Assembly (NCBI GenBank): GCA_963675495.1 | Contig: OY776215.1 | Coordinates: 1,824,001-1,888,000 of the forward strand | Source: an uncultured Methanolobus sp. | GTDB lineage: Archaea; Halobacteriota; Methanosarcinia; Methanosarcinales; Methanosarcinaceae | Direction: 5' to 3' | DNA length: 64,000 nt | Shown here: piece by piece, positions 1-12,592 of the stretch | Numbering within the stretch: the first letter of the stretch is position 1 | How the letters are laid out: the number at the start of each line of letters is the position of its first letter | Notes under the pieces: generated by a model | Database searches by the model: none | The model's input: the letters and a program-made list of their open reading frames with translations, nothing else | Told to the model about the DNA's origin: nothing | Position numbers and translations under genes: made by a program

Positions 1-859
1 GCTCCTCCTGCGTAAGGGGATGCATTGGTTTGTTCTGTATTATCACGGTTTTTGGGTGAACCTGTATAATATCATGGCCGCGTATGTGGTCCTGCTCCTC
101 GTAGACCGTTTTGAATGTTTTTGCGTAGACTTCCTTGTTCTTTGAAACTTCAATATATGGGGCGATCTCTATGCGGCCCTTGAGCAGTTCATCACGGTTT
201 TCTTTCCACGTTTTGATATCCATCTTCCAGACGGTCCCGTCAATATCGTTGATCTCTGATACGGGGACGCCTTTGTTGAGCCTGTCTGCTATCTCAAGTA
301 TCTGGATTTCTCCCATGCCGTAAACAATGAGGTCTGCAGGTGCATCTGCAAGGATGGATTGGCGAACTTTGTCAGACCAGTAGTCATACTGGGCAAAACG
401 ACGAAGAGATGCTTCAATGCCACCGATCACTCTGGGGGTGTCTGGATATGCCTCTTTCAGGCGGTTGGAATAGACGATACTCGCCCTGTTTGGCCGAAGT
501 CCTGCCTGATTTCCCGGAGAGTATGTATCATCATGGCGTAATCTCTTTGAAGGGGTGTAGTTGCTGACCATTGAGTCAGTGTTCCCTGCACTAATGGAAA
601 AGAGCAGGCGTGGTTTTCCAAGTTTCTTGAAATCTTCTACGCTATCCCACTTTGGCTGTGCAATGACTCCTACCCTGTAGCCTGCATCTTCTAGTACTCT
701 GCCTATGATACTTGTTCCAAAACCGGGGTTGTCAACATAGGCATCCCCTGTGATAATGATAATATCAAGTTCATCCCAGCCTTTCTTTTTAGCTTCTTCA
801 AGACTCATGGGCAGAAACTTAGAGGAATCAGCTATTCTGTTTTTCTTATTATGTTTCAT
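1..859 (-). CDS. YgiQ/UPF0313 family radical SAM protein (N-terminal part; runs off window edge)
   Basis: Not in ORF track; my translation from ATG 859 reads MKHNKKNRIADSSKFLPMSLEEAKKKGWDELDIIIITGDAYVDNPGFG..., matching the YgiQ N-terminal GDAYVDHPSFG motif. Confidence 0.85.
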   Translation of the reverse strand, partial: MKHNKKNRIADSSKFLPMSLEEAKKKGWDELDIIIITGDAYVDNPGFGTSIIGRVLEDAGYRVGVIAQPKWDSVEDFKKLGKPRLLFSISAGNTDSMVSNYTPSKRLRHDDTYSPGNQAGLRPNRASIVYSNRLKEAYPDTPRVIGGIEASLRRFAQYDYWSDKVRQSILADAPADLIVYGMGEIQILEIADRLNKGVPVSEINDIDGTVWKMDIKTWKENRDELLKGRIEIAPYIEVSKNKEVYAKTFKTVYEEQDHIRGHDIIQVHPKTVIIQNKPMHPLTQEE

Positions 860-868
860 GATGTATCC

Positions 869-1504
869 TTACAATATACTTTTTGACATGCGGAGGGAAA
901 AACCGATCTGTTTGTTCACGTCATTTGAGGTAACTTCCCCATGCCCCGGGTAAAGTGTCTCGACATCAAGCTTCACAAGCTTGTTGATGGATTCGGTCAG
1001 TTGTGAGCGGTTGCCGCCTTCAAAGTCTGTGCGTCCTATGCTTCCGCTAGGAAACACTGTGTCACCGGAAAAGAGACCCTTTGAATTTGATTCATACAGG
1101 CAGATGCCACCTGGTGTATGCCCTGGGGTGTGAATGACCTCCAGCTCTTCCTCGTTACCTATGGGTATCCTGTCATCTTTGCTGAGCAGTATATCAGGTT
1201 CAATGGACGGAGCTTTATATCCGAATAATGCAGCAGCAGTTACATTGTCATTTTTCAGTAGGGGGGCATCATCCACATGGATTGCTATTTTTGCACCGCT
1301 CAGGCGTGCTATTTCCAGTGCTGATGCTGTATGGTCGTAGTGGCAGTGTGTGAGTATTATCAGTTCAAGGTCCTTTATGTCTATGTTTTTCTCGATCTCT
1401 GCGACCAGCCCTTCTGTGTTCATTCCCGTATCAATCAGGACTTTTCCATTGATCAGATATGAGTTGGCATCGTAAAGGCCCGTATTGAAATGTTTGACCT
1501 GCAT
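869..1504 (-). CDS. MBL-fold metallo-hydrolase (glyoxalase II-like)
   Basis: THCHYDH, HTPGHTPG, SGDT and PGHG motifs. Confidence 0.9.
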   Translation of the reverse strand: MQVKHFNTGLYDANSYLINGKVLIDTGMNTEGLVAEIEKNIDIKDLELIILTHCHYDHTASALEIARLSGAKIAIHVDDAPLLKNDNVTAAALFGYKAPSIEPDILLSKDDRIPIGNEEELEVIHTPGHTPGGICLYESNSKGLFSGDTVFPSGSIGRTDFEGGNRSQLTESINKLVKLDVETLYPGHGEVTSNDVNKQIGFSLRMSKSIL

Positions 1505-1535
1505 GTTTATTCTCCCTTAGAAAAAAGGAATGGAT

Positions 1536-2294
1536 CTAGAGCTCAAATGCCCTTCGGGTATTTCGCATTGTCGCCATGGCTATTTCAGTTTCTTCTATCC
1601 CTTTTAGATGTGCTATTACCGGAACCGAATCAAGGACAAATGCCGGTTCGTTCCTGCCTTTTCTCGGGGAAAGGTAGGGGCTGTCAGTTTCTATAAGCAT
1701 GTTGTCAAGAGGCAGGTTCTGAGCTATTGATTTGTGGTGTTCTGAGAAACATACAAGTGTTGGCACTGATACGTAGTGCCCTGCATCAACTATGTTCTTC
1801 ATGGTTTCAAGTGAGCCACCATAGCAATGAAAGATCACTCTGTCAAGGTCTTTGGTCATTTCAAGTGCAAGGTCTTCGCCATCCCTTCCGTGTATTATCA
1901 GGGTCTTGTTGTACCTGTCTGCAATTTCGATGACCTGTCTGAACACATCTTCCTGTCTTTTCCTTCCGGCGTCGCTCGTGCAATAGTAGAAATCAAGCCC
2001 TGCTTCTCCGACTCCTATGGCCTTGTCTATGTTGCGCTCTATCTGTGATAGTATCTGCTTTATTTTTGCGTCATCTGCATTAGGTACCATCTGCGGGCTG
2101 AGTCCAAGCGTTGCATGAATGAATTCATATTTTTTTGCGAGTTCAAGAGAATTCGAATTCGTTTTGTAGTCTATGCCGGAGTTTATCATCTCAACTACGC
2201 CGCTCTTCCTTGCCCTCTCAATTGTCTCAGGCCTATCCTTATTGAATTTGGGGAAATCAAGATGACAATGGGAATCTATTACTTCATAATTCAT
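1536..2294 (-). CDS. tatD: TatD family deoxyribonuclease
   Basis: DSHCHLD, GEAGLD, HC and ETDSPYL motifs. Confidence 0.92.
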   Translation of the reverse strand: MNYEVIDSHCHLDFPKFNKDRPETIERARKSGVVEMINSGIDYKTNSNSLELAKKYEFIHATLGLSPQMVPNADDAKIKQILSQIERNIDKAIGVGEAGLDFYYCTSDAGRKRQEDVFRQVIEIADRYNKTLIIHGRDGEDLALEMTKDLDRVIFHCYGGSLETMKNIVDAGHYVSVPTLVCFSEHHKSIAQNLPLDNMLIETDSPYLSPRKGRNEPAFVLDSVPVIAHLKGIEETEIAMATMRNTRRAFEL

Positions 2295-2423
2295 ATGTAT
2301 TCAATTCTGGTCTTATTATATAGATATGAACCTGTTCTGAGGATTGGTCCAAAAAAAGATGCTTCGGAAACTAACGAAGATAAAAAAAGTAAAGAACCGT
2401 GATCTTACGGTTCTTGTATTTGT

Positions 2424-3956
2424 TTATTCCATACTCCAGAGTTTCTTCTTTTCAAGAAGTATGTTGATTGCTGTGATGAGTGCGTCCACAGATGCCGTGG
2501 CAATGTCTGCACTTGCTGATTGCGCACTGACCACCCGGCCATCTTCGTCTTCTACAGAGATCGTTACTACTGCCAGAGCATCGCTTCCGCCTGTAATTGC
2601 TTCGAGGCTGAAATCACGTACTTTGACCTTGGTGTATCCCCCGATCATCTGTTCAACTGCATTTAGGGCAGCATCTATTGGTCCCACGCCATAATTAGAG
2701 GCAACAGCTTCCTCATCGCCAATCTTTGCTCTGACTACAGCAGTTGGTGTCGTAAGATTACCTGTCATCACCGAGAATTCTTTTAGGATTATGGTCTCGT
2801 TTCCGAGGTTCCTTCCAAGGACGGCAGATGCAACAGCATGAAGGTCTGCATCGCATATGCGTTTGCCTTTGTTAGCTATGTCCTTGATCCTGATAAGTAT
2901 CTCGTCGAGTTGTTCTTCGGTGGTTTCGACACCCATATCTTCCAGTGACTTCTTGACAGCATGCTTACCTGCATGTTTTCCTATTACTATGCGGCGCTTG
3001 TGACCTACCATTTCAGGGGTCATTATGCCGGGTTCAAAAGTATCGGATTTCTCAAGTACTCCGTGGGTGTGTATGCCGGATTCATGGGCGAATGCATTAT
3101 CACCGACGATCGGGGTATTTGCGGGCATGTGTATGCCAGTGTAATTCTCGACCATCTTGGCGGTTTCAAGCAAGTACTCTGTCTTGATATTTGTCTTTGC
3201 TCCGTATATGGATTGCAGACACATCACTACTTCAGCGAGATTTGCATTGCCTGCACGTTCTCCAAGGCCATTTACGGTTACCTGTATCTGGCTGGCACCG
3301 GCTTCTACTGCCATAAGACTGTTTGCAACGGCAATTCCAAAGTCATTGTGACAATGGACGTCAATTGGTATGTTTACTTCGTTGTTGATGTTTTTCACAA
3401 GCTGGTACATTGAGGAAGGTGCCATTATGCCTACGGTGTCTGGTACGTTTATTATGTCGCATCCTGCTTCTTCTACTGCTTTGTATACTTCTATCAGGTA
3501 ATCAAGGTCGGTTCTGGTAGCATCCATGGCTGAGAACATGCATTTTGTTCCATGGTCCTTGATGTATTCAACGGCATTTACTGCCATTGCGACGACTTCT
3601 TCCTTGCTCTTCTTAATAGTATGTATTCTCTGGATGTCGGAGGTTGATACAAATGTGTGTATCATGTCAACATTACAATCTATGCAGGCGTCCAGATCTT
3701 TTGTAAGGACGCGGGCAAGACCACAGACATCGAGACTCAGGTCTTCGTTAGCTATGGCTCTTACATTTTGCCTTTCGCCATCCGAGGAGACTGGGAAACC
3801 AGCTTCGAGCACATCAACACCAAGTTTGTCCAGTTGCCTGGCAATCTTGAGTTTTTGCTCGTTAGTTAGTGATACGCCGGGTGTTTGTTCACCGTCGCGC
3901 AGTGTCGTGTCAAAAATAGTCTTGTGTGTGTTTATTAGCGGTTTATCGCTGTAAAA
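2424..3956 (-). CDS. leuA: 2-isopropylmalate synthase (LeuA/CimA family); main frame has no ATG/GTG/TTG upstream of the catalytic DTTLRDGEQ motif
   Basis: Frame is open from in-frame TGA (3966-3968) through [40 protein letters not shown] and a C-terminal regulatory domain; the ORF-track start GTG 3812 cuts off the essential DRE motif. Confidence 0.85.
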
Positions 3957-3996
3957 AGCGATCCCTCAGTTGTGCGGTTGAATTCATATTAATCAT
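3943..3996 (-). CDS. Upstream 17-codon ORF overlapping leuA in another frame ([17 protein letters not shown]); candidate frameshift leader
   Basis: ATG 3996 (alt 3987) to TAA 3943-3945, about 20 nt below a TTTTATAA box; contains CGC TTT TTA. Confidence 0.55.
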
Positions 3997-4014
3997 TCCG
4001 GCTTGTAGTCTATG

Positions 4015-4022
4015 TTATAAAA
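4015..4022 (-). promoter_or_regulatory. Putative TATA box for the leuA transcript
   Basis: TTTTATAA on minus strand about 20-25 nt upstream of ATG 3996, consistent with a leaderless mRNA. Confidence 0.45.
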
Positions 4023-4368
4023 GACTTCCGTATAATTCTCACTTCCTATTGTCATGCGTTAAGGTGTAATAACTTACTCCTCCGCAACCTTTTTATATTA
4101 GCCTTGACTTGTAGGGGTGCTCTCACTGAGCCCAATGATGCGGCCAACGCATCAGGAAAATATGCTCTGTGGGAACAGATCGATGAAGTACTAATTTCAT
4201 TTCATCAGGCAGGTGTTACAAAGGTTCCTTCTTTGTCTTCGAATCTCTTGATTCGGAAGGTATATATAGGATGGTGACCTTTGAAGGAGTCCGCGTGAAT
4301 GCGCGAAAACACTTACAATCACCGCCTTTTATTAAGTGGAGGCAAGAGTTCTTTCTTGTCTGACGTTG

Positions 4369-4402
4369 GATTTGGCAGTTCGATTAATTCTGACCGGTAG
4401 TG
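4369..4402 (+). other. 5' arm of 16S pre-rRNA processing stem (bulge-helix-bulge)
   Basis: ggatttggcagttcgattaattctgaccggtagtg pairs with cactaaccggtcagaaatcgaaaaactgtcagatcc at ~6034-6070. Confidence 0.65.
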
Positions 4403-4532
4403 TACAATATACTACCATATAAGGAATTAATCAACTAATGTGCAAAGTAAAGAAATTCTCTAGTGAGAGTTCTTTCCTAAAAATTCCTTAAATGACTTCC
4501 AAAATGCATTAAACTTTTGTGTGAGATCAACA

Positions 4533-6007
<1,475 letters not shown>

Positions 6008-6111
6008 AAGCAAGATGGACACAAAGTCCATCACCACTAACCGGTCAGAAATCGAAAAACTGTCAGATCCGAGAAAAATTACATGGATTCACTGTAAAAG
6101 GGGTCCAAGAG

Positions 6112-6184
6112 GGGCTTGTAGATCAGTTGGAAGATCGCCGCCTTTGCAAGGCGGAGGCCTTGGGTTCGAATCCCAACAAGTCCA
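6112..6184 (+). tRNA. tRNA-Ala(TGC)
   Basis: Acceptor GGGCTTG/CAAGTCC, anticodon arm CCGCC-TTTGCAA-GGCGG, GGTTCGAATCC T-arm; lies in the 16S-23S spacer. Confidence 0.96.
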
Positions 6185-6317
6185 TTATTAGTGCACCTGA
6201 AGAGTAATTTCTTCGGGGAAGGATGAAGTGGCTGAAGCAACGACAGCTGCAATGAGATCGTGTATATGCATGCATATATCAGACGCTCACTGGACAAAGT
6301 GAGATGGACTCTGGTAA

Positions 6318-9226
<2,909 letters not shown>

Positions 9227-9330
9227 GTCCGTCTTGCTTTGTCCAGGCGAAATCTGATATGTGCATGTTTAATATACGCAATCTTATGGTAAAGTATAAA
9301 TTCAATGGATTCAATCATAAATCGCTCATT

Positions 9331-9402
9331 GCCAAGGTGGCGGAGCGGCTACGCAATCGCCTGCAGAGCGATTCCATTCCGGTTCGAATCCGGACCTTGG
9401 CT
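9331..9402 (+). tRNA. tRNA-Cys(GCA)
   Basis: Acceptor GCCAAGG/CCTTGGC, anticodon arm ATCGC-CTGCAGA-GCGAT, GGTTCGAATCC. Confidence 0.95.
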
Positions 9403-9427
9403 TTACCATTTACAATTCATCATGAGA

Positions 9428-9553
9428 GAGATTGGCGGCCATAGCGGCGGGGCAATTCCTGTACCCATCCCGAACACAGAAGATAAGCCTGCCAGCGTTC
9501 CTTACTGTACTGAAGTATGAGAGTCTTCGGGAACTCTGGATCGCTGCCAACTC
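9428..9553 (+). rRNA. rrf: 5S rRNA
   Basis: TTGGCGGCCATAGCGG...CCCATCCCGAACAC...GCTGCCAA closing stem, followed by a T-rich tract. Confidence 0.94.
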
Positions 9554-9719
9554 ACTCAACACTAACTACTAACTTTCTTTTTCTACAATGATTTTAACTT
9601 GAACTAATCTATTTTTTTTCTGGTATTATTGATTCTTACAATCTTTTATTGCTTTTTTGATTGTAAGAAAAGCAATTCTAAAGTAACATGGAACTATCCT
9701 TCATAAAGGAGTGTTAATC

Positions 9720-10091
9720 ATGGGAAAGAGAAAGATTATTTTTGTTTATAATGCCGACAGTGGAATTTTGAATTCGATAGAGGATTATGTTCATAAGATC
9801 GCTTCCCCGTCTACATATGCTTGCAACCTTTGTGGTCTTACATACGGGAACGTTGGGATGAAAAGTGACTGGAAGCAATTTGTTTCAGGACTTAAATTTC
9901 CGGTAGAATTTCTACACAAGGACGAATTCCTTGAAAAATATGACATTGAAAATGTTTCATTTCCATGTGCTTATATTGAATCAGATAATGAAACCGAGCT
10001 TCTGATAAGTTCTGATGAGATGAACTCTCTTGAGACACTTGATGATTTAATGTCACTGGTATCTCTGAAGCTGGCAGATATTCCTGATTGA
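9720..10091 (+). CDS. Conserved hypothetical protein (thioredoxin-like, CxxC)
   Basis: FVYNADSG...CNLCGLTYG...FLHKDEF pattern; GGAG RBS before ATG 9720. Confidence 0.7.
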   Translation: MGKRKIIFVYNADSGILNSIEDYVHKIASPSTYACNLCGLTYGNVGMKSDWKQFVSGLKFPVEFLHKDEFLEKYDIENVSFPCAYIESDNETELLISSDEMNSLETLDDLMSLVSLKLADIPD

Positions 10092-10105
10092 ATTTGCTTA
10101 TTAAT

Positions 10106-10977
10106 ATGAATCCTTTATTTTCAATCAGATCTTTTTTGAGTTTGTTCAGATTTCAAAATTCATTGTTTGGTGCCCTTACTATATTCTTATCAGGAATTCT
10201 ATCATCTGATATCTCTGGATATACTTCTGAATATATTATGGCTTCAATATATGTTGTTTTTCTTGGAATGCGTTCCTTCGCTGTAAACGACTATTTTGAT
10301 TTTGAGATCGATAGGGTAAATGGTAGGACTGACAGGCCTATTGCACAGGGTACAATTAAGAGAAAAACTGCTTTGTATGTGGGTTTGATGAGTCTCATTC
10401 TTTCTTTTTTAATGTCCCTGGGACTTGATCATATTGTTTCTTTACTCCTGATATTCAATGCAGTTGTTTTTTTCGCGTACAGTTATTACTTGAAAAAGAT
10501 ATTCTTAGTCAAAAATATCATAATGGCATATGGTTTCCTTTCCATGATCCTTGTTGGAACGTTAATATCGGATTATGTAATAGAGGCATTGATTTTCTAC
10601 TATGCAATAATGGGCTTCATCGTTGGACTTGCTTTTGAGATTATGATCGAATCAGGGATATGGAAGGCGACAGGCAATTTGGTGTACAAACCCTTGTGTT
10701 GAGGACGTCACCAGGATTTACAGCTTCAGTTTCTATTACTCTGTATGTATTGGTCATGCTACTCGATCCACTTCCATATTTTGTGAATATAGATCCTCTT
10801 CTTTATCACGACTCCCTCTTTATGATATTGATAATGCTTCCTGTGATTCTTTACATCTTTATTTCAAAATCCCTGCTTAGGGACATGTCAAAAAATAATG
10901 TTGGCAGATTAAGAGAAAGAACTATTAATGTAATGCAGCTTGGTTCACTTGCATATTTGCTTGGTTATCTTTTGTAA
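10106..10977 (+). pseudogene. UbiA family prenyltransferase (DGGGP synthase-like), frameshifted near 10650
   Basis: First ORF has NDYFDFEIDRVNGRTDRPI; the second Asp-rich motif (I)RDMEGD continues in another frame after ATGATCGA|ATCAGGGATATGGAAGGCGAC. Confidence 0.75.
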
Positions 10978-11164
10978 TTTTATCCTGCAAGCGATATGAC
11001 ATTTTGGAATATTTAGTATCAGACTACAGTATTGCCATGCAAAAAAGGTAATTGTAAAGCACTTTTCTATTTTTATTCACGCATGTTCTATTAGTTTAAT
11101 AATATACTCAAAAGCACCTATATAACATAAGATCTTAAAACCATTGTTTCTCTCTTGTTCAATA

Positions 11165-11198
11165 AATGAGGCTCAATAGACCTCATTTTATTTTTTTG
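11165..11198. terminator. Hairpin plus T-tract between convergent genes
   Basis: AAATGAGG-ctcaataga-CCTCATTT followed by a T-run. Confidence 0.45.
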
Positions 11199-11212
11199 CT
11201 TTTAATTGTGTT

Positions 11213-12592
11213 TTATTGAAAAAGATTCCCCCATCCCTGAACAAGTATTATCAGAACAACAATAGGCAATATGTATCTTGCATATGGACTGACCCATTCA
11301 GGTATTTTCTTTCCTCTGCCGGTATTTGCCTCTTCTATGAAATTATTCCATCCCCATCCAATTTTCAATGTACAGAACATAACTATTGAGAGAGCTCCGA
11401 TTGGGAGAATATTGTTACTGAATATAAAATCTTCAAGATCCAGTATTCCACTACCAGGTCCAAAGGGTTGTATGCTACTTAGTGGCCCAAAGCTAAGTGC
11501 ACATGGCAGCGAAAGAATAAAGATTCCAATAGCATTAAAAAAGGCTGCTTTTTTGCGCGTCCATCCCCATTCATCAATTGTGAATGCCATTATATTCTCA
11601 AAAATAGCTATAACTGTTGACATTGCAGCAAAAGAAAGGAACACAAAGAAAAGGAAGCCCCAAATTATTCCTCCAGCCATCTGGTTAAATATGTTGGGCA
11701 GGGTCACAAAAATGAGTTCAGGGCCTGAACCTGCATCAATTCCAAAAGCAAAAGCTGCAGGGAATATAATAAGTCCTGCAAGCAGAGCAATAGAAGTGTC
11801 CAGTGCAACCACATTGATCGATTCTCCGACAAGGGAACGCTCCTTTCCAATGTAGCTGCCAAATATTGCCATTCCTCCTGCACCTGCGCTTAATGTAAAG
11901 AAAGCCTGTCCCATGGCCGCATAAACCGCTTCCCTGCCTATCAGACTGAAATCTGGTTTCAGGTAGAAGTCAATTCCTGCAGATGCTCCCGGAAGAGTGA
12001 CAGATTTAAAAACAAGGATCAGTAATATTATAATCATCCCAGTCATGAGATTTTTACTAACCTTTTCAGCACCATTCTGAAGCCCCTTTGAACAAACCCA
12101 GAAACCAATGACAACGACAAGAGCCATCAAGGATACTATTTCTAAAGTGTTACTGAGGAATGTCCCGAAAAAGTTACCGACTTCCTGGGGCGCAAGTCCA
12201 CTGAAACTACCGTTGATCGAGTAATATATGTATGCAAGTCCCCAGCCTGCCACAGTGGTGTAAAACATAACGAGCAGAACATTTCCTATAATGCCCATAT
12301 ATCCGAATATATGCCATTTGCTGCCCGCAGGTTCCAGTTTTCTCATGGCGCCTGCAATGTTCAGTTTCCCTGCCCTTCCAATGGAATATTCCATAAGGAG
12401 AATGGGAAATCCCAGCAGAATGAGAAATGCAAGATAAATAAGGACAAAAGCAGCTCCTCCATATTTTCCTGTAATATAAGGGAAACGCCATATATTGCCA
12501 AGACCGATGGCACATCCTGCTGATATTAGCAGAAATCCTATTCTACTGGCCAGTTGTTCCCTTTCTACGTTGCCTTTTTCTTCTTCTGCCAT
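11213..12592 (-). CDS. Sodium-dependent transporter (NSS/SNF family)
   Basis: AIGLGNIWRFPY, GQAFFTLS and GPELIF motifs; many TM helices. Confidence 0.93.
   Translation of the reverse strand: MAEEEKGNVEREQLASRIGFLLISAGCAIGLGNIWRFPYITGKYGGAAFVLIYLAFLILLGFPILLMEYSIGRAGKLNIAGAMRKLEPAGSKWHIFGYMGIIGNVLLVMFYTTVAGWGLAYIYYSINGSFSGLAPQEVGNFFGTFLSNTLEIVSLMALVVVIGFWVCSKGLQNGAEKVSKNLMTGMIIILLILVFKSVTLPGASAGIDFYLKPDFSLIGREAVYAAMGQAFFTLSAGAGGMAIFGSYIGKERSLVGESINVVALDTSIALLAGLIIFPAAFAFGIDAGSGPELIFVTLPNIFNQMAGGIIWGFLFFVFLSFAAMSTVIAIFENIMAFTIDEWGWTRKKAAFFNAIGIFILSLPCALSFGPLSSIQPFGPGSGILDLEDFIFSNNILPIGALSIVMFCTLKIGWGWNNFIEEANTGRGKKIPEWVSPYARYILPIVVLIILVQGWGNLFQ

Follow-up and report, generated by a model that had tools for sequence, protein, structure and literature searches.

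In this study, we found that the leuA gene of an uncultured Methanolobus sp. has no ordinary start codon of its own and is overlapped, one base out of register, by a short leader open reading frame (ORF) with a leucine codon near its end. The gene lies on the minus strand of the window, by which we mean the whole stretch of 64,000 nucleotides that was analyzed (contig OY776215.1, positions 1,824,001 to 1,888,000, assembly GCA_963675495.1). Judging from its sequence, production of LeuA would depend on a programmed +1 ribosomal frameshift that responds to how much charged tRNA-Leu is available, a reading to which we give slightly better than even chances. The two-frame anatomy is conserved among relatives, it includes a complementarity to the 3' tail of 16S rRNA that resembles a Shine-Dalgarno (SD) element, and it follows a cognate-codon rule, the paralog cimA having an isoleucine codon where leuA has the leucine codon. 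CimA is the entry to the pyruvate route to isoleucine, as established in methanogen biochemistry, and therefore each of the two genes carries a codon for its own end product.

The enzyme frame of leuA is closed by a TGA directly before GGG and, as a previous interpretation made from the letters of the window (hereafter the sequence-only reading) had stated, contains no ATG, GTG, or TTG until GTG 3812, which is downstream of the catalytic DTTLRDGEQ motif. The product contains this motif and was identified as 2-isopropylmalate synthase, scoring 738.5 bits over residues 12-507 with NF002085, whose cut-off is 517; the names of the closest database proteins point to the genus Methanolobus. The leader lies one base behind the enzyme frame and reads ATG(3996) ATT AAT ATG(3987) AAT TCA ACC GCA CAA CTG AGG GAT CGC TTT TTA CAG CGA TAA. 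It had been described as a 17-codon ORF from ATG 3996-3994 to TAA 3945-3943; this ORF exists, but its first ATG is found in some species only, and the conserved start is the second one, ATG 3987-3985 (MNST..). When TTT+T is read as one step, the two frames fuse, as had been claimed, and give a 520-aa protein with no further change in the gene. TTA, the Leu codon at the junction, and CTA are the least used Leu codons of this genome (UUA 10%, CUA 7%), and each is decoded by the tRNA of one gene only, tRNA-Leu(UAA) in the case of TTA. Because a TATA-like box is placed ~30 nt before ATG 3987, the sequence suggests that the leuA mRNA is leaderless or nearly so, and a TTTATA-type box was seen by eye at the same distance in the loci of the genus.

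The shift itself, its position, and its response to the amino acid are what we infer from this arrangement. Ribosomes would start at the leader AUG 3987, probably on a leaderless mRNA, and would translate the leader until peptidyl-tRNA-Phe sits on UUU (3957-3955) in the P site with the rare Leu codon UUA in the A site. With prompt delivery of Leu-tRNA(UAA), L-Q-R would be read and translation would stop at UAA, yielding no enzyme. With Leu-tRNA(UAA) scarce, the stalled ribosome would slip by +1, from UUU to UUU here and from CUU or UUU to UUY in other lineages, and would go on to read UAC AGC GAU.. into full-length LeuA. The slip may be aided by GAGGGAUC, 2 nt upstream, pairing to the 16S 3' tail, as in prfB, the bacterial gene for release factor 2. 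In cimA, the same cassette would work with an Ile codon in the A site.

Conservation of this arrangement was analyzed in leuA 5' regions from relatives, covering the class Methanosarcinia and one further family, with a total of 105 distinct loci; L069, which has no DTT motif, was left out of all counts, and five loci (rows such as CCGTGGAGAAGA) were re-anchored for the core-position and cassette counts. A cassette of the form [A/T/G]GG-[G/A]AT-NNN-YTT-(Leu codon) is present in 101 of the 105 loci. The elements that the sequence-only reading had expected to be shared among relatives were recovered in these loci, namely an out-of-frame ATG (99/101), a YTT slip codon (98/101), the Leu codon (101/101), and a nearby stop (101/101). 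The codon preceding the Leu codon is TTT in 59 loci, CTT in 39, ATT in two, and GTT in one, and in 98 loci YTT is followed by Y, which leaves the P-site tRNA able to re-pair one base downstream. The Leu codon at the sensor position is TTA in 79 loci, CTA in 21, and CTG in one, with CTT and TTG in two outgroups, and it is also Leu in six further leuA cassettes beyond the 101. The leader stop is located 0-10 codons past the Leu codon (two codons past in 71 loci), and in several families an ordinary SD (GAGGT, GGTGAT) precedes the leader ATG by 5-9 nt, as is the case where the mRNA clearly has a 5' untranslated region. Orthologs with an in-frame ATG would have spoken for a conventional start; 82 of the 101 cassette-bearing loci have none, and the other 19 have one in the interval from the upstream stop to DTT. 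In 71 loci, this interval is free of ATG, GTG, and TTG altogether. Four loci are devoid of the cassette: L038 and L041 start in frame in the usual way (MSMNYRNEEL..), L045, of family f6, has ATC TAC in the enzyme frame six bases after GAGGAG and no canonical enzyme-frame start, and the leuA 5' region of L061 is wholly different. L042 and L043, also of family f6, have a stronger SD, AAGGAGGG, then ATT TTA six bases on, and no canonical enzyme-frame start. The public gene calls of these enzymes (P0003-P0122, P0124-P0243) are a patchwork of ATA, ATT, ATC, CTG, and internal ATG or TTG starts, with N-termini that vary by genus.

The second LeuA-like gene of this genome is located outside the window (G000:C1:698640-700118; L002 / L116). 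Its product is 42% identical to LeuA and is named (R)-citramalate synthase or CimA by NCBI and UniRef. Its enzyme frame runs from a TGA into GGG ATT GTA TTA TTC GAA.. (GIVLFENVRFLDTT) without an in-frame start, and NCBI annotates it with an ATT start as a 492-aa protein. The other frame, one base behind, reads GTG AGG GAT TGT ATT ATT CGA.., with ATT ATT where leuA has TTT TTA. Among 55 distinct cimA loci, 49 contain the cassette, and the sensor position, which is Leu in leuA, is Ile in all 49 (ATT 46, ATC 3). Families f2, f4, f6, and f7 share the form SD(GGTGAT)-ATG-N-N-[A/T]GG GAT CGN TTT ATT/ATC with a stop 0-2 codons later, giving the leader peptide M-x-x-[R/W]-D-R-F-I, and family f1 has NTG AGG GAT YRY ATT ATT; over all cimA loci the leader stop lies 0-13 codons past the sensor. 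Position 12 of the cassette is A in 42/42 distinct cimA sequences; this base opens the Ile codon and, in the enzyme frame, is the third letter of a Leu codon, although TTA makes up only 10% of Leu codons here. Position 14 varies between T and C, a change that is silent for Ile and turns F to S in the enzyme frame, and the third-position periodicity of the enzyme frame starts only at position 15. These three features show selection on the leader frame of cimA as far as the Ile codon and on the enzyme frame thereafter. The Ile codon at the sensor position of cimA, which the sequence-only reading had not foreseen, strengthens the idea of amino-acid sensing. In one cimA locus, L138, one base has been lost within the cassette and the frames are fused (GTG AGG GGC TTA TTA TTG GAA). 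A third paralog, L003, which has no regulatory domain, has a normal ATG and no cassette. The presumed cimA 5' UTR (untranslated region) of the genus (L116-L132) also contains a conserved 8-9-bp hairpin of the GCTGCTACT..AGTAGCAGA type ~20-45 nt before the cassette.

Beyond the class, the leuA cassette was found in family f16 (L187 and L188, GGTGAT..ATG GAA ATG AGG GAT CGT TTT TTA), in family f36 (L202), in the Methanomicrobiaceae metagenome-assembled genome L206 (..GCG GAT CGT TTT CTT CGT TGA), and in the Halorutilales locus L267 (..GGG AAT CGT TTT TTG). The cimA cassette with Ile is present in all four outgroup genomes (f16 3/3, f36 1/1) as ..AGG AAT CGT TTT ATT or ..TGG GAT CGC TTT ATT; both cassettes thus occur outside the class in two families (f16 and f36), and the leuA cassette alone in L206 and Halorutilales. 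A related-locus search from family f16 returned mostly unrelated bacteria, plus L204, L206, and L267. Within this genome, a motif scan gave 60 matches, of which only those of leuA and cimA open a long ORF exactly at the motif; a third candidate cassette, at 1981005, was rejected as it is antisense to another gene. A phylum-wide pattern scan matched 159 of 401 genomes, but 17 of the 20 fetched out-of-class matches lie in unrelated frames, so the scan gives no count of cassettes. We judge the chances to be even that Halobacteriota hold a family of switches in which a single hungry codon reads tRNA charge and a +1 shift leads into the first enzyme of the pathway, with Leu for leuA and Ile for cimA.

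At its 3' end (5996-6007), the window's 16S rRNA reads GGATCACCTCC(T). The bulged pairing of the SD-like element to this tail, as claimed in the sequence-only reading, was reproduced with ViennaRNA as an 8-bp predicted duplex of -11.5 kcal/mol, which ranks it in the top 0.24% among 20,000 12-mers drawn at random from this genome. This prediction applies to the window and to most families; in family f7 it is -7.4 to -5.5 kcal/mol (top 4-13%). The core GG.AT.G of the element is invariant in 51 distinct leuA sequences. Family f7 (for example L059, L063, and L070 for leuA and L156-L165 for cimA) shows a parallel change from AGGGATCG to TGGGATCG in both genes, and covariation of the 16S tail with this A-to-U change was rejected because the tails are identical in 5/5 genomes. 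A small hairpin surrounds the slip site. In 24 distinct sequences, 74.3% of its cells pair as compared to 67.6% in shuffled alignments and 18.8-53.5% in slid controls, and its covariation score of 0.312 (0.177 shuffled) was reached by 0/500 shuffles. Pair 8:17 was seen as C-G, A-U, U-A, and U-G, and compensatory changes are found at two inner pairs across genera, albeit the hairpin is absent from some lineages. Rfam at gathering thresholds found rRNA and tRNA, and no other RNA family, in positions 1-12000 of the window.

It is extremely improbable that the frame break is an artefact or a sign of decay, that is, a one-base homopolymer assembly error or a pseudogene. A run of five T on the minus strand (A5 at 3953-3957) is a typical place for indel errors. 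However, no indel was seen at this run in the contigs of 4/4 sequencing runs (two runs of a single sample, a third of a second sample, and a metagenome run 95-99% alike), a comparison made on contigs only, and the break is shared by 101 of the 105 distinct loci, including forms free of homopolymers such as CTT CTA and, in cimA, ATT ATT. The genome is a single complete contig; the T5 run is kept in 25/25 loci of the genus, all 25 of which have TGA-GGG ATC GCT TTT TAC without an in-frame start. The 513-codon frame remains open and conserved, which argues against a pseudogene; assembly error and pseudogene were rejected based on the four-run check and the conservation of both the break and the open frame. 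Transcriptional slippage was also rejected, by the reasoning that many lineages have no homopolymer (CGT CTT CTA; cimA ATT ATT), and so was a bulge-helix-bulge mini-intron, since the hairpin, as judged by eye, is a plain 6-bp stem without bulges. In one of the runs, X4, short high-depth contigs break at 3960-3963 inside the cassette, where depth changes from ~2990 to 1190; contigs cannot show RNA ends.

The leucine-sensing frameshift put forward in the sequence-only reading has held in that the pattern is conserved, no computed result overturned it, and cimA offers an Ile parallel, but the third-position pattern of the leuA core speaks against the slip site it proposed. This pattern is one of several observations that weigh against a shift at the hungry codon. 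The leuA core varies at positions 0, 3, 6, 9, 12, and 15, which are third positions of the enzyme frame, whereas the leader-frame third positions 2, 5, 11, and 14 scarcely vary, and the changes GGG to GGA and ATC to ATT or ATA are silent in the enzyme frame only; G-I-x-F-Y therefore looks translated, and a shift at positions 9-11 would not give that. In family f7 the SD-like pairing is weak, and both genes have the A-to-U change even though its 16S tails do not differ from those elsewhere. Re-pairing would be poor in cimA, where UUU to UUA keeps two of three pairs and AUU to UUA one of three, and AUU is not a rare codon (34% of Ile codons). A leader ATG is missing from L042 and L043, despite their cassette, and from L045, in which no cassette is recognisable either. 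An enzyme-frame ATG is present in 7/8 Methanosarcina-type leuA loci (nine codons before DTT), in 6/30 leuA loci of family f4 (MRGIVFY), and in 7/8 cimA loci of family f7, and such lineages may need no shift. The variable positions of the leuA core coincide, too, with those places in the predicted SD duplex that adjoin the bulge, end the helix, or tolerate wobble. Moreover, position -1 keeps its G even in loci whose enzyme frame has a stop there; an RNA-level explanation of the core variation is possible. On the side of the sensor, five Leu codons of the possible six (TTA, CTA, CTG, CTT, and TTG) occur in leuA over an enzyme residue that is Y, C, F, or W; this codon variety is weaker evidence for the leader frame than that from cimA, since three of these residues (Y, F, and W) are aromatic. 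In favor of a P site at codon 9-11, every locus without a leader ATG has ATT as its P-site codon, six bases after GAGG (2/2 leuA loci of f6 and 26 cimA loci of f1), and no TTT- or CTT-type locus is without a leader ATG. ATT is a near-cognate start codon, and the SD-like element appears able to place the P site at codon 9-11 because the ATG-less loci have ATT there. The natural ordinary-start variants also point there, as they begin at or beside this codon and have no G-I (MSMNY.. in L038 and L041, ATC TAC in L045, and MYITE.. in P0105). One alternative is that the shift occurs three codons earlier on A_GGG, where peptidyl-tRNA-Arg(CCU) would move from AGG to GGG, the enzyme would start with ..L-R-I-A-F-Y, and the sensor codon would be read only by ribosomes that had not shifted. 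We consider this unlikely, despite its accounting for the third-position pattern and I-x-F-Y conservation of leuA and for the invariant GGG of cimA (42/42), and despite the good re-pairing of AGG to GGG (G.U, G-C, G-C). It leaves no role for the cognate Leu or Ile codon, for the invariant A12 of cimA, or for the T/C at position 14, and provides no slow A-site codon, GAU being common. Moreover, it is impossible in L043, whose leader frame opens one codon before AGG without a start, and in L206, where GCG G stands in place of NGG_G; the UGG_G of family f7 would re-pair with a G.A mismatch, and the natural direct-start variants have no I-x.

Much the same low probability, if anything a shade lower, applies to an explanation without frameshift, in which the LeuA frame would start at a non-AUG codon, either AUC 3962-3960 beside GAGGG or the NCBI-annotated ATA 3935-3933, and the leader would be a separate regulatory small ORF. 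The codon beside GAGGG is always AUC, AUU, or AUA (GUC or GUA in one cimA genus), that is, a third-position variant of AUG or GUG; database calls use such starts (MNTHK.. from ATA, MVFY.. from ATC, MWGIVFY.. from CTG, and the 492-aa cimA product from ATT), and some non-AUG start must occur in family f6, where leuA lacks both a leader ATG and a canonical start. However, GAGG is located just 1 nt before AUC, as compared to 5-9 nt before ATG for the real SDs in these loci, AUG, GUG, or UUG never occurs at that codon in 143 distinct cassette sequences (101 leuA, 42 cimA), and GUC and GUA would be very poor starts. ATA 3935 is not conserved even in the genus, where GTA and CTA variants exist, and L138 has no in-frame AUH codon. 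A ribosome stalled at the hungry codon would also cover AUC and lower the enzyme level in starvation, which is the wrong direction. Termination-reinitiation, in which ribosomes would complete the leader and resume translation close by in the enzyme frame, is very unlikely. It would suit 7/8 Methanosarcina-type loci, where the leader TAA overlaps the region just past an enzyme-frame ATG located two codons before the stop, but the position of the leader stop spans 0-10 codons past the sensor in leuA and 0-13 in cimA, no enzyme-frame ATG follows the cassette in 92/101 leuA and 49/49 cimA loci, and the logic would be inverted, with more enzyme when leucine is plentiful. The A_GGG slip, the non-AUG start, and reinitiation each fit some lineages, but none of them accounts for the cognate-codon rule, and only frameshifting at the sensor codon gives a sensible direction of control.

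The proposed switch resembles bacterial prfB in having a short zero-frame ORF before a +1-frame enzyme without its own start, a slippery YUU_Y P-site codon (CUU_U in prfB), and an SD-like element 2-3 nt upstream with predicted pairing to the 16S tail, and in that the decoding rate at the A site would report the supply of the gene's own product. Unlike prfB, the A-site codon of leuA and cimA is a sense codon (Leu 101/101, Ile 49/49) rather than a stop, the leader stop comes 0-13 codons later, the sensed quantity would be charged tRNA rather than release factor, and the host is archaeal; the predicted SD pairing of leuA forms only with a bulged base and is weak in family f7. There is also a likeness to the leader attenuation of bacterial leu, ilv, his, and trp operons, where a leader ORF contains codons for the end product and stalling there raises expression; the leaders described here have one or two cognate codons (CTT/TTA or TTT/TTA in leuA, ATT-ATT or TTT-ATT in cimA). 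Leader-peptide attenuation of amino-acid operons reportedly has actinobacterial examples as well. In contrast to attenuation, the leader overlaps the enzyme ORF with no spacer for a terminator or antiterminator, the only structure found being the 6-bp hairpin around the slip site, and the output in leuA would be a change of frame, not transcription read-through. To our knowledge, no leader-peptide or T-box-like system has been described in Archaea, and little is known about how amino-acid synthesis is matched to demand in these organisms.

In hungry-codon shifting in starved E. coli and at the +1 sites of yeast Ty1 and Ty3, the P-site tRNA slips, or a tRNA enters the A site out of frame, while the zero-frame codon awaits a scarce aminoacyl-tRNA, as described in a 2016 review (PMC5009743), and the proposed leuA/cimA mechanism is of this kind. 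Unlike the leuA/cimA cassettes, the E. coli shifts are laboratory errors and those of Ty1 and Ty3 are retroelement sites. For useful trans-frame proteins made via hungry-codon frameshifting, the review states that 'no examples are known', and it names virus tail genes and Mg-chelatase as probable archaeal cases of frameshifting (PMC5009743). The fucA1 gene of Saccharolobus solfataricus is likewise an archaeal cellular gene split in two frames and recoded, but there the shift is -1 on an A-AAA-AAT heptamer, in one species and without metabolic sensing; a review refers to it as the sole programmed -1 frameshifting reported so far in Archaea (PMC8211752). The efficiency of HIV-1 gag-pol frameshifting reportedly depends, like that proposed here, on the availability of the tRNA for UUA at the slip site, although this is a -1 shift in a virus with no feedback on leucine synthesis (PMC6547452). 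Our search of the full-text literature found nothing linking archaeal leuA or cimA to frameshifting, leader peptides, or start-codon anomalies. The terms isopropylmalate, citramalate, frameshift, and leuA are absent from the main text of a Ribo-seq paper on M. mazei, whose supplementary small-ORF lists may include the leuA or cimA leader (PMC11456600).

If the frameshift is real, hungry-codon frameshifting would have its first natural use in leuA and cimA, which would also be the first archaeal cellular genes with +1 recoding and the first case of leader-peptide-type control of amino-acid synthesis in Archaea, and would answer the question of the recoding field whether starvation-induced frameshifting is put to use. 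A 15-base cassette would then make the ribosome a sensor of charged tRNA, and one codon change would switch its specificity from Leu to Ile. The ad hoc ATA, ATT, ATC, and CTG starts or truncated N-termini given to leuA and cimA in Methanolobus, Methanosarcina, Methanothrix, Methanoperedens, and relatives are probably wrong. The cassette is directly testable in genetically tractable Methanosarcina. The positions of the features in the window are listed in Table 1.

Table 1. Features of the leuA locus and the proposed 16S rRNA partner, in window coordinates
Feature	Position	Strand	Remark
Putative TATA box TTTTATAA	4015..4022	-	Recognized by eye; upstream of leader ATG 3987
Leader ORF, conserved part (ATG 3987 to TAA)	3943..3987	-	
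TGA closing the leuA enzyme frame, directly before GGG	3966..3968	-	Same TGA in 25/25 loci of the genus
leuA enzyme frame, 513 open codons, stop at 2426-2424	2424..3965	-	Post-shift reading proposed from TAC 3953-3951
SD-like element GAGGGATC	3960..3967	-	2 nt before the slip codon; one bulged A against the 16S tail
Proposed P-site slip codon TTT	3955..3957	-	Can re-pair on the overlapping TTT 3956-3954
Proposed sensor codon TTA (Leu), zero-frame A site	3952..3954	-	Leu in 101/101 leuA cassettes
Small hairpin ATCGCT / AGCGAT	3945..3962	-	Hexaloop TTTTAC contains slip and sensor bases
16S rRNA 3' end GGATCACCTCCT, proposed pairing partner	5996..6007	+	Tail identical in five genomes of three families

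The 16S rRNA gene belongs to a complete rRNA operon (16S, tRNA, 23S, tRNA, 5S) at 4533-9552 on the plus strand, which is divergent from leuA and begins ~540 bases from the leader.

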